A stretch of DNA of 64,000 nucleotides from Methanoregula sp. (GCF_049510175.1 NZ_JBEKZF010000003.1:149195-213194), one strand, 5' to 3'; positions 15,070 to 43,121 are shown, counted from the stretch's first letter. The notes: a model not told the origin generated them from the sequence alone. Program-made: numbers and translations.

Positions 15070-15089
15070 ATAAACAGGATTGATGCAGT

Positions 15090-18337: not shown

Positions 18338-20017
18338 ATGATCTCTGTTTTGTTTATTGATGACAATACCGATCTTCTTGCCCAGATCCGCACGTTTCTT
18401 GAGAAGACCGGGGAGATCAGGGTTGAGCAGGCCCATTCCATAAAACAGGCAATAGAAAAACTCCGCGGCAGGACCTTTGACGTTATTGTCTCCTACGAGC
18501 AGATGCCCGATGTGAACGGGATCGAATTCGTGCCGGATATGAACGGGATAGATTTCCTGAAATACCTCAAGACCCAGGGAAATGCGACGCCGGTTATCCT
18601 CCTCTGCCGGAGAAGTTCGAACAGGCTCGCCCTTGAGGAAGTGAACAACGGGACGGAGATCACTCTTCCTAAATCCGGGGATATCCGCCCGCAGTTTATG
18701 GAAATGGTCAACCTGATCAAGCAGACGACGCTCAGGAAAAAAGCTGAGCGCGAGCTTAAGGTCCAGAACGAGCAGCTGGCAACGATCCTTTCCGCAACTC
18801 CTCTCGGAATATTCCAGATGCGCAACGGCATACTCGAATGGGTGAACCGACCCTTTGTTTCCATGCTTGGGTATACGGAAACGGCACTGGTTGGCAGGGA
18901 GTTACGCACGCTGCTGAAGACTCGTGAGGAGTTCGAACAGATCTGCCGTGAATTCCTGATCCGGAAGGATACCCAGGGCCTCGGGCATGCAGACTGCCGG
19001 CTCATCAAAAAAGACGGCTCATCCGTTCCCTGCCACCTCCAGGTGCAGCCGCTTGATCCCGGTGATATCACAAAGGGCGGGACTTTTGTCGTCACCGACA
19101 ACTCGGAAAAGCAGAAGATCACTGATGCACTACGGGAGAGCGAGGCAAAATACCGCGACATGATGCAGAACACCCAGAGCATTATCATCCGGATGGATAC
19201 GCAGGGGAATATCACATTCTTCAACAATTATGCCCTGACTTTTTTTGATTACACGTCGGAAGAGGTGATCGGAAAAAATGTCGTGGGAACGATCGTTCCC
19301 GAGAAAGCCCGCGTCCAGCACGGGCTCTCGATGATGGCAAACGACATCGGGTTCAATGCCGAAGGCTATGCGGTCAATGTCAGCGAGAATGTCCGGCGTA
19401 ACGGCGATCGCGTCTGGATCGCATGGATCAACAAGGCGATCCGGGATGAACAGGGCAGGATCATCGAAATCCTTTGTATCGGCAACGATATCACGGACCG
19501 CAAACGCGGGGGGGAAGTACGGATCAGCACCGATACCTGGAAAGATATGGTTGTCGCGGACACGGATGTGAAAGAGGAAGTGTTCGACGCGGTCTTCCAC
19601 ATCTGTACCGAGATCTCGATTGAAGGCCGGGAAGGAAAACCGGTCGGCACCACGTTCCTGATCGGGGATACGAGGAACGTGCTGGAAAAATCCCGCCAGA
19701 TTATCCTGAACCCGTTTGAGGGCCACCGGCCGGAGCTGCGCATTGTCACAAACCCTGATCTCAAGGAGAATATCAAGGCCCTCGCACAGCTCGATGGTGC
19801 ATTCGTCATCTCAGGTGACGGGTTTGTTGAATCTGTGGGCCGTTATATCACGGTGGACACGAGCAACGTCTCCCTTCCCCCCGGGATGGGAACCCGCCAC
19901 AACTCGGTTGCCGCCATCACGCAGGTTACCCATGCTGTCGGTATTGTCGTGTCGCAGAGCGGCGGGGGGATTACGGTCTTCAGGGAGGGCCGGATCCTGA
20001 AAAAGATCACTCTCTGA
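18338..20017 (+). CDS. Receiver-like/PAS/PAS/DisA_N diadenylate cyclase
   Basis: REC-like N-terminus, two PAS/PAC domains, and a DAC domain with EGREGKPVGT, LDGAFVI and GTRH. Confidence 0.85.
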   Translation: MISVLFIDDNTDLLAQIRTFLEKTGEIRVEQAHSIKQAIEKLRGRTFDVIVSYEQMPDVNGIEFVPDMNGIDFLKYLKTQGNATPVILLCRRSSNRLALEEVNNGTEITLPKSGDIRPQFMEMVNLIKQTTLRKKAERELKVQNEQLATILSATPLGIFQMRNGILEWVNRPFVSMLGYTETALVGRELRTLLKTREEFEQICREFLIRKDTQGLGHADCRLIKKDGSSVPCHLQVQPLDPGDITKGGTFVVTDNSEKQKITDALRESEAKYRDMMQNTQSIIIRMDTQGNITFFNNYALTFFDYTSEEVIGKNVVGTIVPEKARVQHGLSMMANDIGFNAEGYAVNVSENVRRNGDRVWIAWINKAIRDEQGRIIEILCIGNDITDRKRGGEVRISTDTWKDMVVADTDVKEEVFDAVFHICTEISIEGREGKPVGTTFLIGDTRNVLEKSRQIILNPFEGHRPELRIVTNPDLKENIKALAQLDGAFVISGDGFVESVGRYITVDTSNVSLPPGMGTRHNSVAAITQVTHAVGIVVSQSGGGITVFREGRILKKITL

Positions 20018-20031: not shown

Positions 20032-22098
20032 TTACTCATGCCGGCATTCCGGCAAGCCGGAACTGCACTTGTGCCGGCAGATATTGCCTACTGCCCTGAA
20101 GGCATCCTCGAGGTCCGGGAAGTTGGGGATCTGTGAATCGTGCAGGATGCGCAGCGGCGTTTTCATGCTGTCGCCGCCTATCATACAGCCGACGATCATT
20201 TTGTGCGTATTTTTGGAAAAACGGACGATCTCGTTTGCCACCCGGATCGGATCGGAGATGGCTGTGGGTACCGCGATCACAAACGCGATGTCCCAGATGT
20301 CCTGATGACGGATCATGATATCGAACGTGCGGGCGAACTGGTCTGCACTGGAGTCGCCAACCATATCAATGGGGTTCTCGCGGCTCCAGTTTACCGGCAG
20401 CACGGCATTTAGTTCGCCGGTAAGTTCGGACGAGAATTCGATCATTTCGATTCCGAACCTCTCGGCATAATCGGACGACAGGACAGCAAACCCCCCGGCA
20501 TTGGTGATGACGACGGCACGGGTTCCCCTCGGGTATCCCTCGGAAGAGAGCAGCTCGGCTGCCTGGAAGGCTTCCCGGATGGAACTGACCGGGATAACCC
20601 CGGCCTGGTGGAAGGCTGCCATGTATACTTCAAAACTCCCGGCCAGGGAGCCCGTATGGGACGAAGCGGCTTTCTGTCCGATCCGCGAGGATCCGGATTT
20701 TATGGCAACAACCGGTTTTGTCGGGGATACCTTCCGGACAGTCTCCATGAAACGCGGGCCGGACCGGATCTGTTCGATATAGAGGATGATCGCCCGAGTG
20801 GCAGGATCGCTCCCGGCAAACCGGATGAAGTCCTCAAAGGTGAGATCGGACTGGTTACCGACACTGATAACCGCAGAAAAACCGATCTCCTCCGGCAGGC
20901 TCCAGTCGATGATGGTCGTAATGATCGCGCCGCTCTGGGAAATGAAGGCGATCCTTCCGGGTTTCGGGGAGACCGGATCAAACGTCGTGTTGATCCCTTG
21001 ATACGGGAGCATGAGCCCAAGGCAGTTGGGGCCCATGATCCGCATGCTATGGCGCTGTGCAGTCGATAGGATCTCGTCTTCAAGCTGCCGCCCAACATTT
21101 CCGCTTTCACGGAATCCTGATGAAATGATGATGGAAAGAGGCACCCCTTTCAGTCCTGCCTCGTTGATAACTTTGGGAACGCCGGGTGCCGGGATCGCAA
21201 TCACCGCGAGATCGACCTTTTCCGGTATGGATGCAAGGTCCGGGTATGCAGTGTGCCCGAGGATCGTGGGGCTCTTCGGGTTGACCGGGTAGAGAGTACC
21301 GGGGAACACGAGCAGGTTCCGGCAGATCGCGTACCCGACCTTGTTCGGGTCCTGCGATGCCCCTACGACAGCTATGGAATGAATATCGAGAAGGCTGACG
21401 GGCATTTCCCGGGCTGCGATAGTGTCAACGGTCGGAGGTGTATCATCCCGGTAAAACCGTGCATCTACCGCGCACCCTCCCGTTTCGTACAGGATCAGGG
21501 GGTTGATATCGAATTCGCTGATACGGGGATCGGACAGGAACATCCCGGCAACAGAACCGATGATCTTCACAAGGGACGCTTCGTCCAGCGCCGGTTCGTC
21601 ACGATAACCGGCGATCAGCGGGTAGCTCCTCAGCTCCCTGACCATGGTTCGGATCTCACTCTCATCGATGGGAAGAACGCGGATGGAGATATCCCTCAGC
21701 AGCTCGACCATCTTCCCGCCGAACCCGATGGTGATGACCTTGCCGAATGCCGGATCGGTTTTCCCCCCGACGATCAGTTCAAGCCCTTGTGCCATCTGCT
21801 GCTCTACCATGATACCGGTGATCTTCGCGCCGGAACTGTGGGCCTGAACATTCCGGGCAATATGATCGAATGCCAACCGTGCTTCCGCGGTAGAACGTAT
21901 GCCCGTGACGACACCTCCGGCATCACTCTTGTGGACGATATCCGGTGAGATCACCTTCATGACAACCGGATATCCTATGGAATCGGCAGCACGGGCAGCA
22001 TCGTCCTGCGTAGTGGCAACATGATAGTGCGGTACTGGAATATCGGCGCCTGCCAGTAGTAAATATCCTTCTGCTTCGGAAAGTAACGTCCTTGTCAT
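20032..22098 (-). CDS. ADP-forming acetate/acyl-CoA ligase, beta-alpha fusion (ATP-grasp domain first)
   Basis: VMKVISPDIVHKSDAGGV and EFDINP, then GASQDPNKVG, GPNCLG, SQSGA and SHTGSLAG (phospho-His). Confidence 0.9.
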   Translation of the reverse strand: MTRTLLSEAEGYLLLAGADIPVPHYHVATTQDDAARAADSIGYPVVMKVISPDIVHKSDAGGVVTGIRSTAEARLAFDHIARNVQAHSSGAKITGIMVEQQMAQGLELIVGGKTDPAFGKVITIGFGGKMVELLRDISIRVLPIDESEIRTMVRELRSYPLIAGYRDEPALDEASLVKIIGSVAGMFLSDPRISEFDINPLILYETGGCAVDARFYRDDTPPTVDTIAAREMPVSLLDIHSIAVVGASQDPNKVGYAICRNLLVFPGTLYPVNPKSPTILGHTAYPDLASIPEKVDLAVIAIPAPGVPKVINEAGLKGVPLSIIISSGFRESGNVGRQLEDEILSTAQRHSMRIMGPNCLGLMLPYQGINTTFDPVSPKPGRIAFISQSGAIITTIIDWSLPEEIGFSAVISVGNQSDLTFEDFIRFAGSDPATRAIILYIEQIRSGPRFMETVRKVSPTKPVVAIKSGSSRIGQKAASSHTGSLAGSFEVYMAAFHQAGVIPVSSIREAFQAAELLSSEGYPRGTRAVVITNAGGFAVLSSDYAERFGIEMIEFSSELTGELNAVLPVNWSRENPIDMVGDSSADQFARTFDIMIRHQDIWDIAFVIAVPTAISDPIRVANEIVRFSKNTHKMIVGCMIGGDSMKTPLRILHDSQIPNFPDLEDAFRAVGNICRHKCSSGLPECRHE

Positions 22099-22236
22099 CG
22101 CAACCGGTCCTGAGAGAGTGTGGTCTGGTACCGTTCTTAATGATGTCTGCCGTTCCATAAGAAAGGGCAGACTGGAGAAGAACGCAATAGCGTTCTTCGA
22201 TTTACCTCCAGAGTCATAATAAGCAGAAGTTCCAGA

Positions 22237-28475: not shown

Positions 28476-29600
28476 TTAAGTATTTTTCCGTCGTGTTGAA
28501 AGAGCGAGGAACAATACTCCTGCGATGATAACTCCCGCAAGAGCGGTTACAGGTGATACCGGAAGGGAGAGCGGGTTTTTGATGAGGGTCGGTGAAATAG
28601 ATTTCGTTTCACCGGTCTGTACCGTTGCCTGAACGGAGTAGGTAAGATAGCCGGGAGATTTGATCTCCACAAGGTGGTTGCCCGTTGTAAGATTTCCGAG
28701 GGTAATGGGAGTTATTCCCTTGGGCACGGAATCAACGTAAACGGGTGCACCAGATGGTGTTGATGAGACGGATAACGTACCGGTTGGTGTGGAGGAGGTC
28801 TGTGGATTTTGTGTCAGCCCGGTAACCGGTGATGATGACAATACCGGAGTCGTTCCGGATTGACCCCCGGCACCTGGCGTGGCGTTTCCCTCAGGAGGGG
28901 AAGGCTGAGGGGGGATGACGGTGATTGTTGTACGGAACGGGTTTTTTACTGACGGACTGGTTACAGTCACGTAATATTCACCCGGCTGCATATCCACATG
29001 GAAAGCATACGTGAAATATCCCGATACAGTTGCTGAAGTATCATAGGTATGGAAGATGGTCCCGTTCACATCGCTGATCTGAATGCGGATGTCCTTAGTC
29101 CCCTGTTCAGCAGTACCTAATAGCTGGATGTAATTGCCGGTTTCAAGCGGGTTCGGGGTTGGGACCACGTAAAAATCCGGTTTTTTCATCATCACTGAAG
29201 TTGTGGCAGTCTGTGTCGGATCGCCAAAGTCAAGAGCAGTGATGTAATACCGTGCAGTCTGCATCTTGTCGATTCCCTGGATATTTGAGGTGTACCAGAT
29301 AAATCGCCATGAGCTGTCATCCTTCACCTCAATGGGATTACCGGTCCCCTCCTTACCGTTGAGATCATAGACCGGGACCCCGCCAGCGGGCAGTCCCGGG
29401 CCGTTGAGTTTCAGGACCGTAACATTCCCCGCCCTGTTGTACCCGTCGAAGATAATGGTATCACCAATGTAATATCCCCCGGCACCGCGATACGCGATGG
29501 ATAACGTATTATTCTCTGCAAGAACCGGCTGCAGACAGATGGCAACAGCTGCGAGCAGGACAAGGGATGAAATAATTCTGCTGATTTGTATTTTACCCAT
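28476..29600 (-). CDS. Secreted surface protein with PEGA domain and C-terminal anchor
   Basis: Signal peptide, Thr/Pro/Ser linker, SSTPSGAPVYVD PEGA motif, TM segment followed by RRK. Confidence 0.8.
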   Translation of the reverse strand: MGKIQISRIISSLVLLAAVAICLQPVLAENNTLSIAYRGAGGYYIGDTIIFDGYNRAGNVTVLKLNGPGLPAGGVPVYDLNGKEGTGNPIEVKDDSSWRFIWYTSNIQGIDKMQTARYYITALDFGDPTQTATTSVMMKKPDFYVVPTPNPLETGNYIQLLGTAEQGTKDIRIQISDVNGTIFHTYDTSATVSGYFTYAFHVDMQPGEYYVTVTSPSVKNPFRTTITVIPPQPSPPEGNATPGAGGQSGTTPVLSSSPVTGLTQNPQTSSTPTGTLSVSSTPSGAPVYVDSVPKGITPITLGNLTTGNHLVEIKSPGYLTYSVQATVQTGETKSISPTLIKNPLSLPVSPVTALAGVIIAGVLFLALSTRRKNT

Positions 29601-29758
29601 GCTATGCCTCTCTTTATAAAGAATATAACTTAAACGTATATATTTTCTTTATTGTAAGATTTTTGCTTAAAACGCAGGTTATAAGAGGATTTCTTCTTAC
29701 CCTATAACGAAACTATATCTATTTTACCGGGTAACCCTTGATGCGAGGGAAATGGACA

Positions 29759-31789
29759 ATGACCGACGTTGAGTTGGCCAAAAAACATGGCGAAGACCTG
29801 CTGAAAACGAGAATTTCTGCCATCCGGCAGTCGTTTTCCTATGAAGATACAGCCTATCACCTTCCGATATCCTACGCACTGACCGGTATTGCGGTCCATG
29901 ACCAGAAAGCGGCTTTGGAAGTGTTCGGGAAGATGGGGAACAACCCAATTGTTGCATCCGAGTGCCTCCTTGCAGAGCAGACCGCAGTCTCCGGCAAAGA
30001 GCCGGTACCCTATACCGGTTTTATCAGCGACACGGTCATCCGCAAACTCGGGTATTCTCTTGTCGACGGAAGTATCCTTGGCCTTGCACTCGTCGTAGGC
30101 ACCCCCCCGAGCGAGGGGAGTGCTGCAGGCATCTGCCGTGAACTGCAGGAAAAATATATGCTCACGTTTCTTGCCGGAAAGGTTGTCCCTTCCTTATCCG
30201 GGGCGGGTGTCCGGCTGGGCCTTGAATACCGTCTTATCCCCCTCGGCTCTGCACCGTTCCACGGCATCCATTTCGTTGACATCATCGCCCGCGTCGCCAT
30301 GATGTTTGGAGGTGTCACTCCCGGTGACGCCCATCGCCTGCTCACGTATGCAGCCGAACGTGCCAAGGCCATCGTGATCGTCTTTCCCGGTTTGTCCGAT
30401 GAAGAGATCGCCCTTGTGGATGGCATGAGAGTGCTCGGCTTCCCCATCCTTTCACTTGGGGGATACGAGGGGGGGACGTGGATCCATGCCACTCCCGAAG
30501 ACGTGGTCCGGCAGGGGCTGGATCAAAAGGGCATCCGGGTCAATGTCACCGCCATCCCGATTCCCATGGGGTGTTCTCCTGCATTCGAGGGAAAGAGCAT
30601 AAGGAAGGAAGAGATGTACGTGGAGTTCGGCGGCGGCAGATCGCCGGCCTTCGAGCTGCTCAAGATGCGCCAGCCCTCAGAAATTGAGGACGGGAAGGTT
30701 ACGGTCATCGGCCCCGAGATCGAATCGATGAAAGAGGGATCGGCCAACCCGCTGGGCATCATCATCGAAGTTGCCGGGAAGACGATGAAGAAGGATTACG
30801 AGCCGGTACTCGAGCGGCGGATCCACAACTTCGTCAATTACGGCGAAGGTTCCTGGCATGTTGCGCAACGGGACCTCATCTGGGTGAGGATCTCGAAGGA
30901 AGCAGTTGCAAAAGGAGTCAGGATCGAGCACATCGGAAAGCTCCTGGCAAGCAAGTTCCGCATGGACTTTCCCCGGCTGCTCGACGCGGTCGCAGTCACC
31001 CTGATTACGGACAGCACAAAAGTCCTCGAGGCAAAAGCCGAAGCGGAGCGGGTCTACGATGAGCGGGATGCCCGCATCAAGGGGATGCGTGACAGCGACG
31101 TGAGTACCTATTACTCGTGCACGCTTTGCCAGACCTTTGCCCCCAACCATGTCTGCATCATCACCCCGGAGCGCCTCGCCCTCTGCGGAGCGATCAGCTG
31201 GCTTGACGGGAAGATTGCCTGCGAGATATCCCCCTCCGGCGCCAACCAGCCGGTGGAGAAAGGGGCGGTGATCAATGCCCAGAACGGTGAATTTGAGGGG
31301 GTCAACCGGTTCGTGAAAAAAGCCAGCCACGGCGAGATCGAACGTTGCTCCCTCTATAGTGTCATGGAATTCCCGATGACCTGCTGCGGCTGTTTCGAGG
31401 CGATCGCCCTGATGCTGCCGGAAGTGAACGGGATCATGGTAGTCAACCGTGAGTATAAGGGCATGACCCCCTCCGGTATGACATTCTCCACGCTCGCCGG
31501 CACCATTGGCGGCGGGGCGCAGACACCCGGGTTTGCCGGGATCTCCAAGAATTACATCCTTTCAGACCGGTTCCTCCAGGGCGATGGCGGGATCGAGCGG
31601 CTGGTCTGGATGCCGGCAGCGCTCAGGGAGGAATTAAAAGAGCGGCTGGAGAAGAAGCTGGAGGAACGGAAGCTGGCCGGCTTCTTTGCAAAGATTGCGG
31701 ATGAGACAACCGCAGCAACGATCGAAGACCTCATGGTATTCCTTGAACGTGTCGGTCATCCAGCCCTGGGCATGAAACCGCTGGTGTGA
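29759..31789 (+). CDS. acsB: Acetyl-CoA synthase, bacterial AcsB-type with N-terminal domain
   Basis: EDTAYHLP, GFISD..R and MMFGGVTPG N-domain; PAFEG.SIRK; A-cluster SCTLCQTFAPNHVC...LCG and PMTCCGCFE; ends HPALGMKPL. Confidence 0.9.
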   Translation: MTDVELAKKHGEDLLKTRISAIRQSFSYEDTAYHLPISYALTGIAVHDQKAALEVFGKMGNNPIVASECLLAEQTAVSGKEPVPYTGFISDTVIRKLGYSLVDGSILGLALVVGTPPSEGSAAGICRELQEKYMLTFLAGKVVPSLSGAGVRLGLEYRLIPLGSAPFHGIHFVDIIARVAMMFGGVTPGDAHRLLTYAAERAKAIVIVFPGLSDEEIALVDGMRVLGFPILSLGGYEGGTWIHATPEDVVRQGLDQKGIRVNVTAIPIPMGCSPAFEGKSIRKEEMYVEFGGGRSPAFELLKMRQPSEIEDGKVTVIGPEIESMKEGSANPLGIIIEVAGKTMKKDYEPVLERRIHNFVNYGEGSWHVAQRDLIWVRISKEAVAKGVRIEHIGKLLASKFRMDFPRLLDAVAVTLITDSTKVLEAKAEAERVYDERDARIKGMRDSDVSTYYSCTLCQTFAPNHVCIITPERLALCGAISWLDGKIACEISPSGANQPVEKGAVINAQNGEFEGVNRFVKKASHGEIERCSLYSVMEFPMTCCGCFEAIALMLPEVNGIMVVNREYKGMTPSGMTFSTLAGTIGGGAQTPGFAGISKNYILSDRFLQGDGGIERLVWMPAALREELKERLEKKLEERKLAGFFAKIADETTAATIEDLMVFLERVGHPALGMKPLV

Positions 31790-31796
31790 GAAAACC

Positions 31797-32753
31797 ATGG
31801 CATTCGACCTCAATTTCGGCTGGACCACAACCATCGGGGAAGTAGTGCTCGGCGCAACGAAAGCAGACGGGGGCACACGGAGGCTCTCGTACCGCATCGG
31901 TGGCGGGACAACACTTCCGTTCCTCGAGAGCCGTATGGACTCCCCCTCCCCCCTCATCGCCCTTGAGATCTGCAATGATCCTGCATTCTGGTCGCCGATC
32001 GTTAAGAACTACTGCGGGGATTTGGTCAACAATGTCAGCGAGTGGGCAAAAGCTGCCGATGCTTCCTATGGTGCCGATCTCATCCGGCTCTACCTCACCA
32101 GCACGCGCCAGCGAAATTTTACGGACATTCCTTCGGTCGGAAAATGTGTTCAAGACGTGCTTTTGGCATCCAGCCTCCCGCTGATCATCGATGGGAGCAA
32201 TGAGCCGAAGATCGACAGCGAGGTATTCCAGACATGCGGGGAAGTGGCACAGGGAGAGCGGCTCCTCCTCGGCACTGCAGAGGCGGGGAGGTACCGCAGC
32301 ATCGCGGCTGCCGCACTTGCCTACAACCACTCCATCATCGCACAGTCACCTATCGACATCAACCTTGCAAAACAGCTCAATATCCTCTTGAAAGAGATTG
32401 GTGTCCCGCGGGACCACATCGTGATCGACCCGTACACCGGGGCCCTCGGCTACGGCTTCGAATATTCCTATTCGGCCATGGAGCGGATCCGGTTCTCCGC
32501 CCTCAAAGGCGATGCCGATCTCGCCATGCCGATGTGCTGCTCCGCGATCGATACGCTTACAATCAAGGAAGTGCGGGAAGCGGAACCTAAAGTGCAGGAC
32601 GAGATGGCGATCCAGTGGGAGTTCTACACCAATATCGCAGCAGCAGCGGCCGGCGCAGAGATCATCTGCATCCGCCACCCTGGCACCATCCCCCTTCTCA
32701 GGAAGGCATTCGCCGACATGAAAAAACAAAAAGCACCCGCGGAGTTGCGATAA
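31797..32753 (+). CDS. acsD: Corrinoid Fe-S protein small subunit (AcsD/CdhD)
   Basis: GEVVLGAT..GGTR..IGG...LPF, IDINLAKQLN, DPYTGALGYGFEYSYSAMERIR. Confidence 0.9.
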   Translation: MAFDLNFGWTTTIGEVVLGATKADGGTRRLSYRIGGGTTLPFLESRMDSPSPLIALEICNDPAFWSPIVKNYCGDLVNNVSEWAKAADASYGADLIRLYLTSTRQRNFTDIPSVGKCVQDVLLASSLPLIIDGSNEPKIDSEVFQTCGEVAQGERLLLGTAEAGRYRSIAAAALAYNHSIIAQSPIDINLAKQLNILLKEIGVPRDHIVIDPYTGALGYGFEYSYSAMERIRFSALKGDADLAMPMCCSAIDTLTIKEVREAEPKVQDEMAIQWEFYTNIAAAAAGAEIICIRHPGTIPLLRKAFADMKKQKAPAELR

Positions 32754-32754
32754 G

Positions 32755-34092
32755 ATGGCACTCAAGGCACTGGACATCTACAAGCTCCTCCCCAAGAAGA
32801 ACTGCAAGGAGTGCGGCGACCCGACCTGCCTCACGTTCGCCATGAAACTTGCCGGGGGGAAAGCGGATGTCGAGCTCTGCCCGTACCTGAGCGACGAGGC
32901 AAAAGCCATTCTCGGGGCGAGCACGCGGCCCCCCATACGGCTCGTAAGGGTCGGGGTTGGCGAGCGGTTCTTCAAGGTCGGGGAAGAGACGGTCCTGTAC
33001 CGGCACGAGAAAACGTTTTACCACCCGCCGGGCATCGTCTTCCGCGTCAGGGATACGCAGACAGCTTCGGAGATTGCGTCAGTCACCCTCCGGGTGCGGG
33101 ACGAGACCTTCACCCGGGTAGGAGCCGATCTCCGGTTCAGTGGCATTGCCATCGAGAATACCAGCGGGTCGGCGGAAACCTTTGCCAGTGCGGTTGCGGC
33201 AGTCGAGCAGGAACAGGCGCACCTGCCCCCGGTGCTCATTGCAAAGGATCCTGCAGCGCTCAAGGCAGCCCTTGTCCACTGCGGCTCCTACCGGCCGCTC
33301 CTCCATGCAGCGACCGGGGAAAACCATAAGGAAATGTGTGCGCTTGCCCGGCAGTACGGCTGCCCGCTGGTTGTCAGGGCTGCAACGCTCGACGGGCTTG
33401 TCCAGCTGGTGAAGGACTGCACAGCCGAGGGGATACAGGATCTTGTGCTTGACCCGGCACCGGACACACTAGGTGCGTTCATCACCCGTTCCACCCAGAT
33501 ACGGCAGCTCGCGATCACGCGTTCAGTCCCTGAGATCGGGTATCCTGTTTATCTTGATGCCACCGCCACCGGGCAGCAGGACGCAGCGATCGCGCTGGGC
33601 ATCGTGAAATATGCATCGGTCATTGTCACTGATCCGTTGTCAGTCGGGTCGACAAAGGCCGCCCTCACGCTCCGCCAGAACCTCTATACGGATCCCCAGA
33701 AGCCCATCCAGATGAACCCCGGCCTGTACCGAGTCGGGACGCCGGACAAGGACGCACCGGTACTGATGACGGTGAACTTCTCGCTCACTTTCTTCACGCT
33801 CCAGGGCTATCTCGAATCCAGCCGTGTCCCCTGCTTCATGCTGATCGTTGATACCGAAGGGCTGTCGGTCCTGACCGCCGTTGCCGCAGGTAAGCTGAGC
33901 GAGACCTTAGTTCGGGACGCGATAAAAAAATTCGGTGTTGAGGATGAAGTCTTGCACCGGAAACTGATCATCCCCGGGTATGCCTCACCGCTCTCCGGGC
34001 GGATCGAGGAGGCGACCGGCTGGAAAGTCCTCGTCGGTCCCCGTGACGCGGCCGAGATCGGGGAATTCCTGCACGAGGAGTGGAAGAGATAA
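32755..34092 (+). CDS. acsC: Corrinoid Fe-S protein large subunit (AcsC/CdhE)
   Basis: LPKKNCKECGDPTCLTFA...CPY, GEETVLYRHEKTF, YTDPQKP, TVNFSLT, GLSVLTA, GPRDA. Confidence 0.93.
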   Translation: MALKALDIYKLLPKKNCKECGDPTCLTFAMKLAGGKADVELCPYLSDEAKAILGASTRPPIRLVRVGVGERFFKVGEETVLYRHEKTFYHPPGIVFRVRDTQTASEIASVTLRVRDETFTRVGADLRFSGIAIENTSGSAETFASAVAAVEQEQAHLPPVLIAKDPAALKAALVHCGSYRPLLHAATGENHKEMCALARQYGCPLVVRAATLDGLVQLVKDCTAEGIQDLVLDPAPDTLGAFITRSTQIRQLAITRSVPEIGYPVYLDATATGQQDAAIALGIVKYASVIVTDPLSVGSTKAALTLRQNLYTDPQKPIQMNPGLYRVGTPDKDAPVLMTVNFSLTFFTLQGYLESSRVPCFMLIVDTEGLSVLTAVAAGKLSETLVRDAIKKFGVEDEVLHRKLIIPGYASPLSGRIEEATGWKVLVGPRDAAEIGEFLHEEWKR

Positions 34093-35994
34093 ATGCGGAC
34101 CGTTACCTTCCTTCCCAGTTACCGCAAGATCGATGTGGAGCGGGGGACAACCCTCCTCGATGCCGCCCAGCGGGCCGGTCTGAACGTGAACGTGGTCTGC
34201 GGCGGCCAGGGGAAATGCGGCAAATGCGTGGTCTACATCCAGTCGGGAAGGGTAGACTTTGACAAACAGAAGTACGGCCGGTTCTTCACGGATGCCGAAC
34301 TGCAGAAGGGGGCGTGCCTTGCCTGTGAGTCCACGGTGCAGGGCGACCTCCATATCCTAGTCCCCGAGAGCACTCTCATCCAGGAACAGAAGATCCTCGT
34401 GGAGGGACTGGATCAGGCGATCGATTTTCGCCCTTCTGTCCGGAAATACTATGTCGAACTCCAGCCGCCCAGCCTCGCTGATCCCTCTCCCGATCTCTCC
34501 CGTCTGCTGTGGGGAATCCAGAAAAGCGGCGGGCCGGTGGCAGAGAAGATGTACGCCCCGCTTGAAGTGCTCCGCGAGATCCCGGCGATCCTGCGCCACA
34601 GCGAATGGAAGGTAACCGGGACCATCGGCCTCGTGCCCGGAGGATATCGTCTTCTCGATCTCCAGGAGAACGACACATCAAAGCGCGTGTTCGGTGCCGC
34701 GGTCGATCTCGGGTCGACAACGATTGTGGTCTACCTCTGGGACCTCGTCACCGGCAAGGTCGTCAGCGTTGCCTCAAATTACAACAAGCAGATCAGCTGC
34801 GGGGAGGACATCCTTGCCCGGGTAAACTTTGCCCGCAAGAACGGCCTTACCAAGCTCCAGTCCCTTGCTGCAGAAAGTATCAACCAGGCGATCACCTCCG
34901 CATCCAACACGGCGGGGATTGACCGTGAGGACATCTACGAAGTCGTGGTGGCAGGTAATACGGTGATGACGCACATGCTCCTTGGCATCGACCCCGCATA
35001 CATGATCGCCGAACCCTACGTTCCGGTCGTCCGGCGGGCGCTGTCCGTTGCAGCCGGACGCATCGGCATCACCTGCAACCCGAACGGTGGCCTGTTCATT
35101 TTCCCGGCCGTCAGCGACTTCATAGGAGGTGACATTATTGCCGACATCCTTGCCTGCGGCATGAGCGAGAAGGAGGAGATCTCGCTCCTTGTCGATATCG
35201 GCACGAACTTCGAAGTCGTGCTCGGCAACAAAGAATGGATGTTCTCCTGCGCCGGTGCTGCCGGTCCTGCACTGGAGGGCGGGGAGGTCCTCTTCGGCAT
35301 GCGGGCAAACCCCGGTGCCATCGAGGAGATCACGATCGACCCGGTTACCCTGAACCCGAAGTACTCAACCATCAACGGGATCCGGCCCCGGGGAATCTGC
35401 GGATCAGGCCTGATCGACCTGCTCGCCGAACTTCTCTGCTCCTGCGTAATCGACCGGACCGGGCGGATCAATACGGAGATCAACAATCCCCGGATCCGTA
35501 AAAACGCACACTTCCCGGAGTATGTCATTGCGTGGGCAAAAGAGACTGATATCGGCAAGGACATTGTCATCACGGAAAACGACATCAAGAACCTGATCAT
35601 GAGCAAGGCCTCGGTCCATGCGGCCTGCATCACCCTCATGAAGGAGGCGGGAGTGACCCGCCACGAGATCACGACGATCTATTTCGCGGGGGCGTTCGGC
35701 AATTACCTTGACAAGAAAAATGCAACCATCATTGGCCTCATCCCGGAGATTGAGATCGAGCAGATCAAGAACATCGGGAACGGCGCTGTGGCCGGCGCAA
35801 ATATCGCACTCATCAACCGCAGGGCGCGCAAGAAACTCGATGACATCGCATACAAGATTGCTTATATTGAACTGAATGCCGAGAGTTCCTTCATGGACGA
35901 ATATACCGGCAGCACATTTCTGCCGCACACGGACCTCTCGCTCTTCCCGATGGTCCAGAAGCTGCTGGAATCGTGTCGGATCCGAAGGGAGTGA
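34093..35994 (+). CDS. acsV: Reductive activator of corrinoid protein (RACo/AcsV; 2Fe-2S plus ASKHA)
   Basis: CGGQGKCGKC...LAC, AVDLGSTT, DIGTN, GICGSG, AGAFG. Confidence 0.88.
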   Translation: MRTVTFLPSYRKIDVERGTTLLDAAQRAGLNVNVVCGGQGKCGKCVVYIQSGRVDFDKQKYGRFFTDAELQKGACLACESTVQGDLHILVPESTLIQEQKILVEGLDQAIDFRPSVRKYYVELQPPSLADPSPDLSRLLWGIQKSGGPVAEKMYAPLEVLREIPAILRHSEWKVTGTIGLVPGGYRLLDLQENDTSKRVFGAAVDLGSTTIVVYLWDLVTGKVVSVASNYNKQISCGEDILARVNFARKNGLTKLQSLAAESINQAITSASNTAGIDREDIYEVVVAGNTVMTHMLLGIDPAYMIAEPYVPVVRRALSVAAGRIGITCNPNGGLFIFPAVSDFIGGDIIADILACGMSEKEEISLLVDIGTNFEVVLGNKEWMFSCAGAAGPALEGGEVLFGMRANPGAIEEITIDPVTLNPKYSTINGIRPRGICGSGLIDLLAELLCSCVIDRTGRINTEINNPRIRKNAHFPEYVIAWAKETDIGKDIVITENDIKNLIMSKASVHAACITLMKEAGVTRHEITTIYFAGAFGNYLDKKNATIIGLIPEIEIEQIKNIGNGAVAGANIALINRRARKKLDDIAYKIAYIELNAESSFMDEYTGSTFLPHTDLSLFPMVQKLLESCRIRRE

Positions 35995-35999
35995 ACCTC

Positions 36000-37046
36000 A
36001 TGGCAACGATGATCCCGTCACCCCACTCGCTCGCAACCGGCGTCGGCGCACTGCCCCACACGGACCCGAAACAGGCCTGCGACGACGTCCTCTCCATCTT
36101 CCCGGACTTTCCCTACATCCCGACCCTCCCGGACCGTAGCCAGCTCGAAGGCATCGTCTTCAACGATTCCGAACAGCTCCCGGGCCGCCTGATCCGGGAG
36201 GACCGGCTCCTCTTTGACAGCACGCGTGACCAGACTGCCGCGATGGAAAAAGTCTACATGGATTTCGTGGAGGGGAATTTTGCCGACTATGGCCTCCACC
36301 GGGAATATGCATCGGCATTCGTCGAGATGATGTCCCGGAAGATCGCCAAAAGAAGCGTCCTGAAGTGCCAGGTGACCGGCCCGGTGACGTTCGGGATGCA
36401 GGTGGTGGATGCAAACAAGCGGCCCATCTATTACGATGCCCAGCTCGCGGATGTCCTCTCGAAGATGATTGCCCTCAAGGCCTGCTGGTGCGAACAGGCA
36501 ATGCGGGAGCGTACCGGGGTTACGGAAACGCTGGTCGTACTCAACGAGCCCTACCTTGCCTCGCTCGGATCATCGGTGGTCCCGGTAAACCGCGAAACGG
36601 TCCGGGCAGGATGGGAAGATATCTCGTCGCTTGTCGAAGGCGGTCTGGGCATCCACTGCTGTTCCAACACGGACTGGGAATTTGTGATCGGCCTCTCCCC
36701 ATCGGTCATCTCCCTGGATGCCTATGCGACGGCAAAGGAGTTCCTCCTTTATGCGGATTCCATCGTCCCTTACATGGAGAAAGGTGGGGTTGTCGCGTGG
36801 GGGATCGTGCCCGCCGAATACAGGATCTTTGCCACGGAATCCGTGGACTCGCTCTACAGTAAGTATCTCGCGATACGCTCCCAGCTCTGCTCCCGTATGC
36901 CGGAAAAACTCTTCGATGCACAGTCGCTCGTTACACCCAGCTGCGGTATCCGGTTCGCCGACCGGGACGGGTCGCTAGTAATCATGGAAGCGGCCGCGGA
37001 GATCTCCCGGCGCATCCGATCCGGTGAGGCAGACGCCCACACATAG
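36000..37046 (+). CDS. Core (folate-independent) methionine synthase, MesB-like
   Basis: TG.G.LPHTDP, KCQVTGP.TFG, NEPYL, GIHCCSNTDW, AWGIVP and VTPSCG (Zn ligands His, Cys, Cys); lacks the N-terminal MetE barrel. Confidence 0.75.
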   Translation: MATMIPSPHSLATGVGALPHTDPKQACDDVLSIFPDFPYIPTLPDRSQLEGIVFNDSEQLPGRLIREDRLLFDSTRDQTAAMEKVYMDFVEGNFADYGLHREYASAFVEMMSRKIAKRSVLKCQVTGPVTFGMQVVDANKRPIYYDAQLADVLSKMIALKACWCEQAMRERTGVTETLVVLNEPYLASLGSSVVPVNRETVRAGWEDISSLVEGGLGIHCCSNTDWEFVIGLSPSVISLDAYATAKEFLLYADSIVPYMEKGGVVAWGIVPAEYRIFATESVDSLYSKYLAIRSQLCSRMPEKLFDAQSLVTPSCGIRFADRDGSLVIMEAAAEISRRIRSGEADAHT

Positions 37047-37060
37047 GGGATAAAGAGGCT

Positions 37061-37816
37061 ATGTCAGCGCACCCGTTCACGATTGCAGTCTCCGGCAAGG
37101 GCGGGACCGGTAAGACTACCATCAGTTCCCTTCTCATACGGTCGTTTATCAGGCTCGGGGAGGCACCGGTCCTTGCCGTTGATGCCGACCCGAACGCAAA
37201 CCTCCACGAGGCACTGGGCGTCACCGTGCACGAAACTCTCGGCAGTATGCGGGAAGAGGCCTTCTCCCGCACTATCCCCCCCGGCATGAACCGGCATGAC
37301 TACGTACGGTTCCGGTTCCGTCAGGCGTTAATCGAAGCGGAGGGGTTCGACCTGGTGGCAATGGGCCGGCCGGAGGGGAGCGGGTGTTACTGTTTCGCCA
37401 ACGATCTCCTCTCGGAATGCATGCTTCAGCTGGAACGCGACTACCATTTCATCGTCATCGATACCGAAGCCGGTATGGAGCATATCAGCAGGGGCACGAT
37501 CGGGAAACCCGACATGCTCCTCATTGTCAGCGATCCCGGCGCCCGGGGGCTGCGGACGGTTGCCCGGATCCGTCAGATTGCCACCCAGCTCGGTCTTGAA
37601 AAAGAGAAGATCCACGTGGTATTCAACCAGTACAAAACCGGTACCGCTCCGGTCGATATCGGCGATGAATCGCCGATTGCTATTATCCCTGAAGATCCTG
37701 CCGTAGAGAAAGCGGATCTCGCAGCAACACCGGTATCCCTGATCCCGGAGGGATCTCCTGCCCGGACTGCTGTCCGGGAGCTTGCGGTGAAGATCCGGGC
37801 GATGGCGAGAAAATAA
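37061..37816 (+). CDS. cooC: CooC/AcsF nickel-insertion ATPase
   Basis: GKGGTGKTT, DADPNANL, GRPEGSGCYC, DTEAGMEH. Confidence 0.92.
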   Translation: MSAHPFTIAVSGKGGTGKTTISSLLIRSFIRLGEAPVLAVDADPNANLHEALGVTVHETLGSMREEAFSRTIPPGMNRHDYVRFRFRQALIEAEGFDLVAMGRPEGSGCYCFANDLLSECMLQLERDYHFIVIDTEAGMEHISRGTIGKPDMLLIVSDPGARGLRTVARIRQIATQLGLEKEKIHVVFNQYKTGTAPVDIGDESPIAIIPEDPAVEKADLAATPVSLIPEGSPARTAVRELAVKIRAMARK

Positions 37817-37867
37817 TTGATGAGATCGTTAAACACGATACTGCATAAAACTACTATTCCTGATAAA

Positions 37868-38046
37868 TTACGATAGGTGCCGCTGCCCCCGACGGGATGC
37901 AATCGAAGAATCTTTCGGATTCTTCTCAAGCCAATCGTCGCTGATACGACGATTGTCTCCACGCGGCGGATCGATTACGAATAATCAACAACGCAGATAA
38001 TCAGGCCAGCCGTGCCTCATAGGGGCCCTGAGGCAGGGAGCCATCG
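37868..38046 (+). repeat. Dispersed intergenic multi-hairpin element, copy A
   Basis: Shares TTACGAT, GCCGCYGCCCCCGAYGGG, CGCGGCGGATC and a 38-bp block (32/38 identical) with the copy at 51363-51485. Confidence 0.75.
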
Positions 38047-38110
38047 TAATTATCTTAAAAAAACGTGTTGCAAAAATTTTTCTAAAAACTAATTAGAAAA
38101 AGGAAGAGAA

Positions 38111-38653
38111 TCAGATGAACATCGCCACTGCGATTGTCGTCGTCCAGAGACCATTCTTGTCCCCCTCCGCAGACTGGCAGGTGTTCTTGGTCTTGATGAT
38201 CTTGCCGCTCGCCTTGTAGGTCTGTTCACGTTCTGACCAGGCTGCATTGACATCGAATTCGATACCGAGCGTCGTTGCGAGCATGGTCGCCGCGAGATCC
38301 TCGGCATATTCACCAGTCTTCTTCTCGGTCTCCCCGTACGCGTGGTGTTCCGACAGGTACCCGTACTCTTCCGAATCGCTCGGGAGGGCAAGCCCGATTG
38401 CCGATGAGACGAGTCGGTTCGGCTCGTTGGTGTCATTCCGTGCCATGACACAGAAGGTTATCGCGCCGGGTTCGAGTTTCCGGAGCCCCGCAGAACGGGT
38501 GATCTGTTTGCATTTCGGGGGGAAGATGCTCGAGACATAAACGAGGTTGCATTTCTCGATACCAGCCTTCCGCAATGCAAGCTCAAAAGAGGCAAGACGA
38601 TCTTTATGGACACCAACGCCCTTGGTGAAAAAGATCTCTGTCGGAACGTACAT
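38111..38653 (-). CDS. pdaD: Pyruvoyl-dependent arginine decarboxylase
   Basis: [21 protein letters not shown] (Ser-Ser cleavage site), GYLSEHH. Confidence 0.92.
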
Positions 38654-40365: not shown

Positions 40366-41676
40366 ATGGATGACGTGTACCTTATCGAGATCCGGCTCGG
40401 CAGGACCAAATGGAGGGTTAAACAGACCATCTTCGCCATTGCCCTGACGTTCGGCATTGAACCGTATATGGAACGGCACCCGCACGTCACGCTCTACGGG
40501 CCGATGGAGCTGAAGGATGGTATCAGCCACCAGCAGGTCCTCGATGCGATCGCAGCCATAGCGGTACAGTATGATCCCGTCCCGTTCACTCTTGACCGTT
40601 TTGAGAAACGTGAAGGCATGCATGGCGGTGTCATCGCCTTTTCCGTCCGGCCTTCCGGCAGCCTGAAAAAGCTGGCTGCAGAGATCGCCGAGGCATTACT
40701 GCCCATCACCCGGAGCCACAATGCATGGGATGCCCGGCCGGAACAGAAATGGTTTCACATAACGGTCGCCAATCGCCTCGATCTCACGAAGGCGTCTGCG
40801 ATATTCTCGGCTCTGCCGGGACCTGACAGCACGGACAATCCGCCAGCGCAGCGACGGGGAGTCCTCGCCCGTATCCTCTACCCTATCCGCACATGCCTTT
40901 TTCCCGAAAAGGACCATCTCATCCGTCCCATCCTTCTTGACGAGGACGGGCTGAGGATCACGGTCATGCACGGGGAACAGATCCTTGCCGAGTATGATCT
41001 CCTTGAAAAACGCTGGGTTTATGAAGATCACCGGCATGACGGCAGATCGTGGCAGGAGACTCTTGCACGGTTCCGGAAACATGCTGGATTTGAGCGTAAG
41101 GAACCATGCCCGCACGGTGCCGGCGACATCCTCCTTATTGCCGATCTCCATCTCGGCCATGCAAATATCATCCGCTACTGTTCACGCCCGTTCAGCGTTT
41201 CCGATCCCGGCGAGATGGACCGGGTTCTGATCGCCAACTGGAATACCGTCGTCTCTCCCGCTACACGGATCTACCATCTCGGGGACCTTTGCTATGGCAA
41301 AAATGTTCCTCCTGCGAAAGAATACCGGAAACAACTTAAAGGAACTATCACCTTCATTGCCGGGAATCACGATGCACCTGACCCGGCGACCCTTTCTTCA
41401 GCCCTTATTGAATATATGGGAATGCAATTCCTTCTCATTCATGATCCTGCGATGGCCCCTGCCACGTTTGACGGCTGGGTGGTACACGGCCACCACCATA
41501 ACAACGATCTCCGCCATTACCCGTTCATCGATTTTGAACACCGCCGGATCAACGTCAGTACGGAAGTGGCGGGGTATGCACCGGTCAGTCTCGCGGATAC
41601 CTGGTCCCTTATCCAGTACCGCATGACTACCGGAAACACCCAACCGATCCTCCTCAATTATCCCTATACGGAATGA
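40366..41676 (+). CDS. 2H-phosphoesterase (2'-5' RNA ligase-like) fused to calcineurin-like metallophosphoesterase
   Basis: PHVTL and FHITV (two HxT motifs), then ADLHLGH, LGD, GNHD and HGHHH. Confidence 0.85.
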   Translation: MDDVYLIEIRLGRTKWRVKQTIFAIALTFGIEPYMERHPHVTLYGPMELKDGISHQQVLDAIAAIAVQYDPVPFTLDRFEKREGMHGGVIAFSVRPSGSLKKLAAEIAEALLPITRSHNAWDARPEQKWFHITVANRLDLTKASAIFSALPGPDSTDNPPAQRRGVLARILYPIRTCLFPEKDHLIRPILLDEDGLRITVMHGEQILAEYDLLEKRWVYEDHRHDGRSWQETLARFRKHAGFERKEPCPHGAGDILLIADLHLGHANIIRYCSRPFSVSDPGEMDRVLIANWNTVVSPATRIYHLGDLCYGKNVPPAKEYRKQLKGTITFIAGNHDAPDPATLSSALIEYMGMQFLLIHDPAMAPATFDGWVVHGHHHNNDLRHYPFIDFEHRRINVSTEVAGYAPVSLADTWSLIQYRMTTGNTQPILLNYPYTE

Positions 41677-41753
41677 GCGCAGACCATCCAGGGTCCTCCT
41701 TCACAACGTATTTACGATATGCCGGATACATCCACCGTAAAGGTGAACATCCG

Positions 41754-43121
41754 ATGCTGTTTGAACGGATAGTGGCAGAGGGCCTTGCCCATAACTCGTA
41801 CCTTATTGGATCGGGTGACGAGGGGGCAGTCATCGACCCCCGCCGTGACTGCAGGGTCTACCTCGACATTGCGCGCCGGAACCATCTCGTCATCAGAGAC
41901 ATCTTCGAAACGCACCGGAATGAGGATTATGTGATCGGCTCTCGTGAACTCTCGAACCAGTGCGGCGCAGAGATCTGGCATGGGGCACATATGCCGTTCC
42001 TGTACGGGAAACCTGTCAAGGACAAAGACCAGTTTACCCTTGGCTCGCTGGGAATCGAAGTGCTTGAAACTCCCGGCCACACGGAGGAGAGTATCACGCT
42101 TGTAGTGAGGGATCGGGAGGTTGCAGACGAGCCTTATATGATCTTCTGCGGCGATACGCTCTTTGCCGGCGATATTGCACGCACGGACTTTTTCGGCCAG
42201 GAGCGAAAGGCCGAAATGGCCGGTAAAATATTCGATTCCATCACGGGAAAGATCCTCCCGCTCGGCGACGGGGTTATCGTCTGCCCGGCCCATGGCGCAG
42301 GATCAATCTGCGGCGGCACTATCGCAGACCACCCGTTCACGACTATCGGGTATGAACGGCAGACAAATCCCCTGATCAGGATGGGCCGCGATGCATTTAT
42401 TGCACAGCGGGTCACCGAATCTCCGTATCTCCCCCCCTATTTCCGGCAGATGGAGAGGTACAACAAAGACGGGGCGCCTCTCCTTGTCCGTAATCCGTTC
42501 CCGAAGGACCTCAGGATTGCCGAAGTAAACGAGTACCGGAGAGCCGGATGCCAGATCGTTGATATCCGCTCCCCGACCAGTTTCGGCGCCAGCCACATCC
42601 CGGAAAGCCTCTCCATCTGGCGCGAGGGACTTGCCTCGTTCATGGGCTGGGTCCTCGACTATGAGAAACCGGTCATTCTTGTTGACGATTTCAACCTTGA
42701 CCTCGACCAGATTGCCCGGCATTTTATCCGGCTCGGGTATGACAACCTTGCCGGTGTCCTTGCCGGGGGCTTTCCCGCATGGACAAAAGCGGCGCAGGAG
42801 ATTGCAGCCATCCAGACCTGCTCTGTCTGGCAGTTGAAGGAACGTCTTGAAAAAGAATCCCCGTTCCTGCTGGATGTCCGGGATATCAAAAACTGGCGCG
42901 CTGTCGGCCACATCCGTGGTGCGCACCATGTCTATGTCGGGGAACTCCCACAACACCTTTCGGAAATCCCGAAGAACGAGCCTGTTGTGGTCTATTGCGA
43001 TGCCGGGTTCAAAGGAAGCCTGGCCGCAAGCATCCTTGCCCGCAACAACTACCGCACTATCACGAATGTCATTGGCGGGATGACCGCGTGGAAACAGGCA
43101 GGGTTCAAAACCGAGCGATAA
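41754..43121 (+). CDS. MBL-fold hydrolase with two rhodanese domains; alternative start 41673
   Basis: ETHRNEDY, TPGHT, GDTLF, PAHG, DIRSP, DVR..GHIRGA and YCDAG. Confidence 0.88.
   Translation: MLFERIVAEGLAHNSYLIGSGDEGAVIDPRRDCRVYLDIARRNHLVIRDIFETHRNEDYVIGSRELSNQCGAEIWHGAHMPFLYGKPVKDKDQFTLGSLGIEVLETPGHTEESITLVVRDREVADEPYMIFCGDTLFAGDIARTDFFGQERKAEMAGKIFDSITGKILPLGDGVIVCPAHGAGSICGGTIADHPFTTIGYERQTNPLIRMGRDAFIAQRVTESPYLPPYFRQMERYNKDGAPLLVRNPFPKDLRIAEVNEYRRAGCQIVDIRSPTSFGASHIPESLSIWREGLASFMGWVLDYEKPVILVDDFNLDLDQIARHFIRLGYDNLAGVLAGGFPAWTKAAQEIAAIQTCSVWQLKERLEKESPFLLDVRDIKNWRAVGHIRGAHHVYVGELPQHLSEIPKNEPVVVYCDAGFKGSLAASILARNNYRTITNVIGGMTAWKQAGFKTER

Follow-up and report, generated by a model that had tools for sequence, protein, structure and literature searches.

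A bacterial-type acetyl-CoA synthase operon with a MesB-family homologue, and without a CO dehydrogenase gene, in Methanoregula and other Methanomicrobiales

The genome of a Methanoregula species (GCF_049510175.1) carries, at positions 29759 to 37816 on the plus strand of a 64,000-nucleotide stretch of DNA (NZ_JBEKZF010000003.1:149195-213194; hereafter the window), a six-gene operon coding for a bacterial-type acetyl-CoA synthase (ACS; AcsB), the small and large subunits that make up a corrinoid iron-sulfur protein (CFeSP; AcsD and AcsC), a predicted ATP-dependent reductive activator of the corrinoid protein (AcsV/RACo), a homologue of the MesB ("core methionine synthase") family and a CooC/AcsF-type ATPase. 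Family searches of the operon open reading frames (ORFs) found no gene for a CO dehydrogenase (CODH) and none for the methyltransferase AcsE, and no CODH gene stands beside the operon; on this point an initial annotation, made from the sequence of the window alone, was right. The operon is found in 58 of the 151 Methanomicrobiales species genomes, among them genomes with neither cdhA nor cooS, and the module can thus persist without any CODH. The core of the finding, that mesB is wired to acsCD in methanogens, has already been published (Price, Deutschbauer & Arkin, 2021, PLoS Genet; PMC7857596). The mesB-acsCD operons described there have the same arrangement as the one analyzed here; the parts of that paper that bear on them do not discuss the bacterial-type AcsB, RACo or CooC, the coexistence with a full archaeal cdh cluster, the CODH-free genomes or the replacement of a Ser/Asp pair in most archaeal copies of MesB, all of which are described below.

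Six co-directional ORFs fill the interval, in the order acsB, acsD, acsC, acsV, MesB-like gene and cooC/acsF-like gene. They are separated by gaps of 7, 1, 0, 5 and 14 bp, in agreement with the 0-14 bp first reported, when ATG 29759 and ATG 36000 are taken as the starts of the first and the fifth gene; the latter is probably the true start of the MesB-like gene, because its homologues are 344-348 residues long. The gene upstream (28476-29600, minus strand; S-layer/PEGA-type protein) is divergent and the gene downstream (38111-38653, minus strand; pyruvoyl-dependent arginine decarboxylase) is convergent, and the short gaps together with these neighbors therefore point to one transcription unit, an operon with an AT-rich 5' region of its own. 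As read from the sequence, the divergent intergenic region (29601-29758) is AT-rich, with TATA-like runs and, about 9 nt ahead of the ATG of acsB, a GAGGG, and is the presumed promoter and ribosome-binding region of the operon; the convergent region that ends it (37817-38110) contains an A/T run near 38065-38085. Scans for structured RNAs (Rfam and tRNA) gave no match in the window.

AcsB (29759-31789, plus strand; 676 residues) consists of the N-terminal domain and the A-cluster core, and it scores 917.7 bits against the bacterial "alpha/beta" equivalog NF040764, for which the cut-off is 800, covering positions 8-705 of the 705 in that model. Its matches in the PDB are ranked in the same sense: 650 bits to the Carboxydothermus hydrogenoformans ACS, 595 to the Moorella ACS, 510 to the truncated Moorella core and 395 to Methanosarcina CdhC. 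All of the A-cluster ligands are kept (C454, C457, C466, C476 and C543-G-C545), with a spacing that we take to match that of Moorella C506, C509, C518, C528 and C595-G-C597. The alignment to the 464-position model of archaeal CdhC is limited to positions 5-399, and the archaeal C-terminal extension is therefore absent. At the other end, the alignment to the Clostridium autoethanogenum ACS begins at residue 26, and, relative to the bacterial enzymes of Moorella and Carboxydothermus, AcsB is shorter by about 46 residues at its N-terminus. In the core domain, AcsB shares 48% identity with 12 bacterial AcsBs versus 43% with the CdhC of the same genome, and in a core-domain tree rooted on that CdhC as the sole outgroup, 34 Methanomicrobiales AcsBs fall among the 12 bacterial ones, the nearest being a Sysuimicrobiota sequence. 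Thus, by architecture and by grouping, AcsB is a bacterial-type ACS and not a CdhC, as the initial annotation had proposed from the N-terminal domain and the C-terminus; the phylogeny that it suggested as a check gives the same answer. A close bacterial donor was sought: 23 of 25 MesB-bearing bacterial genomes have an AcsB, at just 41-51% identity, and no recent donor was identified. Among 301 sampled genomes of the phylum, an AcsB-type N-domain at an identity of at least 54% is confined to the Methanomicrobiales. Weaker similarity to this domain also occurs elsewhere: frames of about 1380-1407 residues in genomes of another family of the phylum (f10; for example G174:C1:1043353-1043955) match its residues 77-231 at 30-35% identity, and a 0.9-Mb genome (G210) has a 739-residue frame at 29% identity.

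The CFeSP is likewise of bacterial architecture, as judged from its two subunits. AcsD (31797-32753, plus strand; 318 residues, NF003376, 350 bits, cut-off 280) is of the short bacterial form: its alignment to the model of archaeal CdhD (442 positions) spans 112-428, so that the archaeal N-terminal extension is lacking, and it gives a full-length match to the Moorella CFeSP (4djd_D), scoring 218 bits to the bacterial CFeSP. AcsC (32755-34092, plus strand; 445 residues, PRK04165, 556 bits) matches the C. hydrogenoformans CFeSP (2h9a_A) from end to end with 408 bits and keeps the N-terminal [4Fe-4S] motif (CKECGDPTC...C). All of the metal ligands of the module are intact. AcsV/RACo (34093-35994, plus strand; 633 residues) has the Pfam domains Fer2, RACo_linker, Raco_middle and RACo_C_ter, and its model match of 577 bits lies under the 800-bit cut-off of that model. 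The last gene (37061-37816, plus strand; 251 residues) codes for a CooC/AcsF-type P-loop ATPase (CbiA/AAA_31 matches, P-loop GKGGTGKT, C109-Y-C111); in all relatives the operon ends with this conserved gene, and from this position the protein is presumed to be the nickel-insertion factor for the A-cluster of ACS. Family assignment is clear for five of the six operon genes, and the identities initially given to the genes stand.

The fifth gene (36000-37046, plus strand) codes for a predicted Zn thiol methyltransferase of 348 residues. The protein has no sequence match in Pfam (E up to 10), NCBIfam or the PDB, and 1465 relatives among representatives of clusters at 50% identity. Its zinc ligands, H219, C221, D240 and C315, do not vary among 61 aligned homologues and are spaced +2, +19 and +75, versus +2, +19 and +76 for H214, C216, D235 and C311 of the MesB/core-MetE of Dehalococcoides mccartyi (PMC7857596, PMC7005905); two of the Chloroflexota/Dehalococcoidia relatives (L072 and L074) reproduce the D. 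mccartyi numbering at Ser15, Asp177, His214 and Cys311. Outside the archaea, the nearest relatives are MesB proteins of the Chloroflexota (210-249 bits, 34-40% identity), most of them from Dehalococcoidia and Anaerolineae. The threshold used by Price et al. (2021; PMC7857596) is at least 130-173 bits to DET0516, and our comparison uses Chloroflexota/Dehalococcoidia homologues as proxies for DET0516 itself. CFeSP, which the class requires in the genome, is encoded by acsD and acsC in the same operon. The size is that of a single MetE-like barrel, without the folate-binding N-terminal half (the class has about 340 residues). In the AlphaFold2 model (pLDDT 95.6), the top 22 Foldseek matches in the PDB are MetE enzymes (their C-terminal halves) or MesD (3rpd), with a TM score normalized to the query of about 0.6, followed by uroporphyrinogen decarboxylase (UROD). 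In the MesB tree the archaeal clade is monophyletic with a support of 1.0. Zinc ligands, fold and relatives thus identify the fifth protein as a MesB-family homologue, for which a role as methionine synthase is predicted, and the link to MesB made at the outset was correct. In two relatives, an apparent in-frame TGA raised the possibility of selenocysteine or of a pseudogene, which was rejected, as the TGA is the stop codon of acsV.

Functionally, the protein may be compared with MtaA, MtbA and MtsA, the methylcobamide:coenzyme M methyltransferases, which also catalyze Zn-dependent methyl transfer between a corrinoid protein and a thiol. The likeness is one of function only: these enzymes have a UROD-type and not a MetE-type fold, whereas Foldseek ranks MetE and MesD above UROD for the MesB-like protein, no coenzyme M methyltransferase is among the 50 Foldseek matches listed, and no sequence relationship is shown.

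The rest of the genome (2.34 Mb assembly, 97% complete) changes how the operon is to be viewed at the level of the organism. Contig C34 carries cdhA (1160 bits), cdhB, cdhC, cdhD, cdhE and a second RACo gene, with two CooC-like genes upstream, and contig C38 carries cooS (699 bits). The genome is therefore not CODH-less, and the "CODH-less" description first given holds for the operon only. The operon proteins share 43% (AcsB/CdhC), 35% (AcsD/CdhD) and 34% (AcsC/CdhE) identity with their cdh paralogues. The two systems have a homologous catalytic core and corrinoid protein; cdhABCDE, however, includes the CODH subunits CdhA and CdhB, a CdhC without the N-terminal domain and with the C-terminal extension, and a long CdhD, in contrast to the bacterial architecture and the absence of CODH in the operon. 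The cooS cluster (C38:124000-135632, locus L008; cooS at L008:7907-9796, minus strand) also codes for a CooF-like polyferredoxin, for NuoE-, NuoF- and HoxU/NuoG-like subunits and for CooC, a set suggestive, for a hydrogenotrophic methanogen, of a CO dehydrogenase module linked to NAD(P). MesA, the methionine synthase that methanogens usually have, is encoded on contig C1 (NF002119, 394 bits), and methionine therefore does not depend on the operon, unlike in Dehalococcoides. The genome-wide search proposed in the initial annotation thus recovered cdhA, cooS and MesA, while for AcsE it returned a single match to the pterin-binding family PF00809, the only one of the genome (C2:52915-53610, L102), in a 500-residue ORF named by no NCBIfam model. 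We infer that this ORF codes for an enzyme of pterin biosynthesis resembling dihydropteroate synthase, because the family also matches in Methanocaldococcus jannaschii. The matching frame has one in-frame TAG.

The MesB-like gene was detected in 57 and the AcsB N-domain in 56 of the 151 genomes, and both in 55; the three exceptions are incomplete assemblies. In the matches listed with both genes on one contig, the two lie about 6.2-6.5 kb apart on the same strand. The six-gene order recurs in Methanoregula, Methanosphaerula, Methanolinea, Methanoculleus, the Methanospirillaceae and Methanofollis, in all of the named loci whose contig spans the stretch, and because of this recurrence the arrangement is not due to chance. 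Operon proteins are 50-84% identical across the order, and the identity falls with taxonomic distance. The operon groups with bacterial sequences and appears to be an old, order-wide feature of the Methanomicrobiales. Contamination of metagenome-assembled genomes (MAGs) as the source of a "bacterial" operon was considered and rejected, as the operon sits in single-contig genomes of the same genus and of the order. Variations on the layout were also seen. In four Methanoregula loci (L022, L023, L027 and L063), 1.3-3.4 kb are inserted between acsC and acsV, coding in L023 for a thioredoxin/GILT-like protein and in L027 for a 372-residue ORF without a family. Two Methanoregulaceae MAGs have a cooS-cooC pair on the strand of the operon, about 2.7 kb farther downstream and separated from it by an ORF of 329 residues (L038:12704-15531 and L039:12878-15711); the pair may be left over from an ancestral cluster that contained a CODH, or may have become associated secondarily.

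The operon occurs independently of CODH genes. Across the 151 genomes, cdhA is found in 35 and cooS in 83. No association with cooS was detected (32 of 58 operon-positive versus 51 of 93 operon-negative genomes), whereas cdhA is enriched (26 of 58 versus 9 of 93), an enrichment confounded by phylogeny. Acetyl-CoA decarbonylase/synthase (ACDS) is missing from M. marisnigri and M. labreanum (Anderson et al., 2009). Nine operon-positive genomes have neither cdhA nor cooS, and six of the nine are at least 93% complete. Four of the nine (G076, of the same genus, G035, G084 and G122; 93-98% complete) give no match at all to PF03063, and two others (G004 and G110) have just a Prismane-family protein of about 530-550 residues that is matched by neither CODH model and is probably a hybrid-cluster protein. 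The operons read from CODH-free G076, G004, G035 and G084 are all full length, and by nucleotide similarity these four genomes fall in Methanoregula, Methanoculleus and Methanolinea-like lineages.

These genomes bear on the resemblance to the incomplete Wood-Ljungdahl pathway of D. mccartyi, on which the initial annotation was built. The D. mccartyi enzyme has methylcobalamin:homocysteine activity (Deobald et al., 2020; PMC7005905), and CFeSP is its proposed methyl donor (PMC7857596, PMC7005905). Both systems join ACS and CFeSP in the absence of AcsE, here at the level of the operon, and both have His/Cys/Asp/Cys zinc ligands with matching spacing; for each, a route may be proposed that leads from acetyl-CoA to methionine by way of CH3-CFeSP and gives CO as a by-product. 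However, MesB is the sole methionine synthase of D. mccartyi, which has no other methyl source, whereas MesA, methyl-tetrahydromethanopterin (CH3-H4MPT), cdhABCDE and cooS are present here; D. mccartyi has Ser15 and Asp177 where the protein studied here has Ala and Asn, and identity to Chloroflexota/Dehalococcoidia MesB is as low as noted above. Because of its CODHs and MesA, the Dehalococcoides analogy therefore fails for this organism; at the level of the module it is favored by the six relatives that are at least 93% complete and have no Ni-CODH, in four of which the operon was read as intact. The gene context also differs: at 38 bacterial MesB loci, mostly from Chloroflexota, no acsB, acsC or acsD occurs within the stretch examined (up to 9 kb per side), whereas here the mesB-like gene lies inside an acs operon.

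As compared with the acs clusters and ACS enzymes of bacteria (C. hydrogenoformans and Moorella thermoacetica; 1ru3, 7zkj, 1oao, 2h9a and 4djd), AcsB, AcsC and AcsD match over essentially their full length (650, 408 and 218 bits), have the same A-cluster and [4Fe-4S] ligands and are likewise co-encoded with RACo and a CooC-type ATPase. In contrast to the bacterial clusters, the operon has no acsA/cooS and no acsE, and a MesB-type enzyme stands in their place; moreover, the bacterial systems use folate, whereas the host here is a methanogenic archaeon with tetrahydromethanopterin (H4MPT). A 2018 review touches on this relation in a one-line remark, on "some homology" of the ACS of clostridial enzymes and that of the Methanomicrobiales (PMC6282760).

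How might the module work? In the mechanism that we propose, the operon would form a self-contained bacterial-type ACS module and, in this genome, a second ACS system beside cdhABCDE. AcsB would be the Ni-Ni-[4Fe4S] A-cluster enzyme and AcsC with AcsD the CFeSP; AcsV/RACo would re-reduce the corrinoid, keeping the Co(I) state, the CooC/AcsF-type ATPase would insert nickel, and the MesB-family Zn thiol methyltransferase would occupy the slot where bacteria keep AcsE. Since the CFeSP would then have just two encoded methyl ports, the A-cluster and the zinc site of MesB, the chemistry predicted overall is acetyl-CoA + thiol <-> CoA + CO + methyl-thioether, with CH3-Co(III)-CFeSP as the intermediate and no dedicated CODH. 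In the present organism, removal of CO would fall to CooS or CdhA, both unlinked, whereas CODH-free relatives would lose it. The warning in the initial annotation that gene content does not fix the direction of the reaction was well placed. With moderate confidence we favor the published form of this mechanism, in which the methyl group of CFeSP would pass to homocysteine to give methionine, the methyl possibly coming from acetate by way of acetyl-CoA.

Several observations weigh against that form. Some CODH is encoded in 49 of the 58 operon-positive genomes, and AcsB keeps the N-terminal domain that in bacteria docks onto CODH. MesA is present in 122 of 122 good Methanomicrobiales genomes, this one included; there is no obvious need for a second methionine synthase, and MesB is therefore never the sole route to methionine. 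Finally, the MesB-like protein carries Ala17 and Asn182 at two homocysteine-contact positions, and 120 of its 120 closest homologues have Ala or Gly at position 17, Val or Ile at 180 and Asn at 182.

The retained N-terminal domain and the presence of some CODH in most carriers would be accounted for if AcsB partnered a CooS or CdhAB encoded elsewhere, in a CO2-fixing or CO-using CODH/ACS that makes acetyl-CoA, with MesB as a side branch drawing on the methyl group of CFeSP. The N-domain of AcsB is complete and aligns best with those of bacterial AcsBs whose genes adjoin cooS or acsA (L113, L114, L116 and L117); the cooS-cooC pair downstream of the operon in L038 and L039, and the enrichment of cdhA among carriers, may be read in the same sense. 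We nevertheless consider such a partnership unlikely. Carriage of the operon is not associated with cooS, the enrichment of cdhA is confounded by phylogeny, and in most genomes with both genes on one contig cooS or cdhA lies tens to hundreds of kb away. In this genome, CdhAB already has its own CdhC, CdhD and CdhE, and CooS resembles monofunctional CODHs, with PDB scores of 783 bits to that of Thermococcus AM4 and 750 to that of Desulfovibrio vulgaris versus 490 to Moorella AcsA; the genes clustered with cooS are CooF-like and NuoE/F-like. A role of CooS as an AcsA-type partner was rejected on these grounds, similarity and gene context pointing to a monofunctional CODH without being decisive. 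Moreover, no way is known by which CH3-H4MPT could load a bacterial-type CFeSP unless an AcsE-like enzyme takes part, and the operon encodes no such enzyme. The nine carriers without cdhA and cooS, and the intact operons in four of them, also speak against a required CODH. A partner CODH elsewhere, joined in a normal complex, had been named in the initial annotation as what would overturn its proposal. The first of these two elements is borne out, as CODHs do exist on other contigs.

The residues at the contact positions raise a different question, that of the thiol substrate. Ser15 and Asp177 of D. mccartyi correspond to Ser433 and Asp599 of MetE, and in the relevant part of Price et al. (2021; PMC7857596) they are given as homocysteine contacts that are "mostly conserved" in MesB, roles that derive from a MetE-based alignment and not from a MesB structure. 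About 97% of bacterial MesB proteins have Ser and Asp at these contacts. In the MesB tree, the basal Methanospirillaceae copies also keep Ser/Asp, while the remaining archaeal clade has Ala or Gly with Asn or Ser; five more positions conserved in bacteria (40, 42, 52, 55 and 123) differ across the whole archaeal clade. A Methanoregula subclade (L035, and G076 at L125:7504-8538) has Ser17, Phe180 and Asp182 together again, which suggests that positions 17, 180 and 182 are coupled in it. This subclade, with its bacterial-like triple, has Asn instead of His at position 20. We found no report of the Ser/Asp replacement in most archaeal MesB copies in the literature examined. Either relaxed constraint or a changed substrate could underlie this pattern, because of which we file the protein as a MesB-family homologue and not as a proven methionine synthase. 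A link between the residue type and the loss of CODH was examined and discarded, as the CODH-free genomes show no correlation: G076 has Ser/Asp, G004 Gly/Ser, G035 Ala/Asn and G084 Gly/Asn.

If the substrate has changed, the MesB-like enzyme of most Methanomicrobiales would act on a thiol or thioether other than homocysteine, for example coenzyme M/methyl-coenzyme M or a methylated sulfur compound, and the operon would link that methyl pool to acetyl-CoA, with MesB substituting for AcsE in synthesis or serving as a methyl outlet in cleavage. The replacements of Ser17 by Ala or Gly and of Asp182 by Asn or Ser seem to have arisen within the archaeal clade, after the basal Methanospirillaceae, and have been held across several families; the uniformity of the 120 closest homologues and the joint return of S17/F180/D182, suggestive of coupled selection, fit such a change, as do the coverage of methionine by a universal MesA, the invariant zinc ligands, which keep thiol activation, and the place of the gene in the AcsE slot of bacterial acs operons. 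Nonetheless, this appears quite improbable to us. No positive evidence favors any particular other substrate, an Asn would still be able to hydrogen-bond the amino group, and the copies with Ser/Asp, both basal and revertant, share the same operon context. Moreover, the top structural neighbors are MetE enzymes and not the coenzyme M methyltransferases, and the roles of the residues are those of the MetE-based alignment. A more specific form, in which the operon would be an AcsE-free shunt between a methyl-thioether pool (methyl-coenzyme M or environmental methylated sulfur) and acetyl-CoA that bypasses H4MPT and Mtr, with no dedicated CODH, we regard as very doubtful. Its apparent redundancy with cdhABCDE and MesA here and its patchy distribution might suggest that the operon is in decay, the relic of a gene transfer from bacteria long ago, and without current function. 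This is hardly credible, since all six ORFs have their full length, both here and wherever a relative was read on an unbroken contig (split frames occur just in MAG loci L040 and L059), every metal ligand is intact, gene order and protein identity are maintained across the order and the apparent in-frame TGA is the acsV stop codon.

Hydrogenotrophs of the Methanomicrobiales are the dominant methane producers in peat, sediments and many digesters, and schemes of their carbon assimilation usually show a single archaeal CODH/ACS or none at all. More than one third of the species genomes sampled, CODH-free ones included, encode a second ACS/CFeSP module, of bacterial type and with its own activase, predicted nickel chaperone and predicted thiol methyltransferase, and a conserved part of one-carbon metabolism is therefore missing from the standard picture. 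Should the transfer to homocysteine be true, the methyl group of methionine can derive from acetate, with CO as a by-product, a point of importance for tracing isotopes and for cross-feeding with CO; if, instead, the substrate has changed, a new link between methyl-sulfur compounds and acetyl-CoA would emerge. Under either reading, the operon would provide a natural ACS that is predicted to work without a partner CODH, and which would be useful for enzymology.

Other genes of the window were also inspected. The "cobalamin operon" and "acyl-CoA ligase" once thought to supply cofactor and substrate to the module do not bear out that role: cbiD lies at 54 kb, the ligase is encoded on the opposite strand, and unrelated genes lie between. 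The ligase is an ADP-forming acetyl-CoA synthetase with ATP-grasp_5, CoA-binding and Succ_CoA_lig domains (20032-22158, minus strand), 7.6 kb from the operon. Next to it, a fusion of response-regulator receiver, PAS and diadenylate cyclase (DAC) domains (18338-20017, plus strand) is a putative phosphorylation-controlled c-di-AMP synthase. A classical fructose-1,6-bisphosphatase (FBPase), a class II aldolase-like protein and the archaeal fructose-1,6-bisphosphate aldolase/phosphatase (PF01950) are encoded in a row at 14164-17382 (plus strand), and their FBPase functions look redundant. On the other side of the operon, a bacterial-type MutS-MutL mismatch-repair pair (46728-51232, plus strand) is followed by a MutY-like glycosylase (51614-52510). 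Lastly, the protein encoded at 41673-43121 (plus strand) combines a metallo-beta-lactamase fold with two rhodanese domains, in the manner of persulfide dioxygenase-rhodanese fusions, which would be unexpected in a strict anaerobe.

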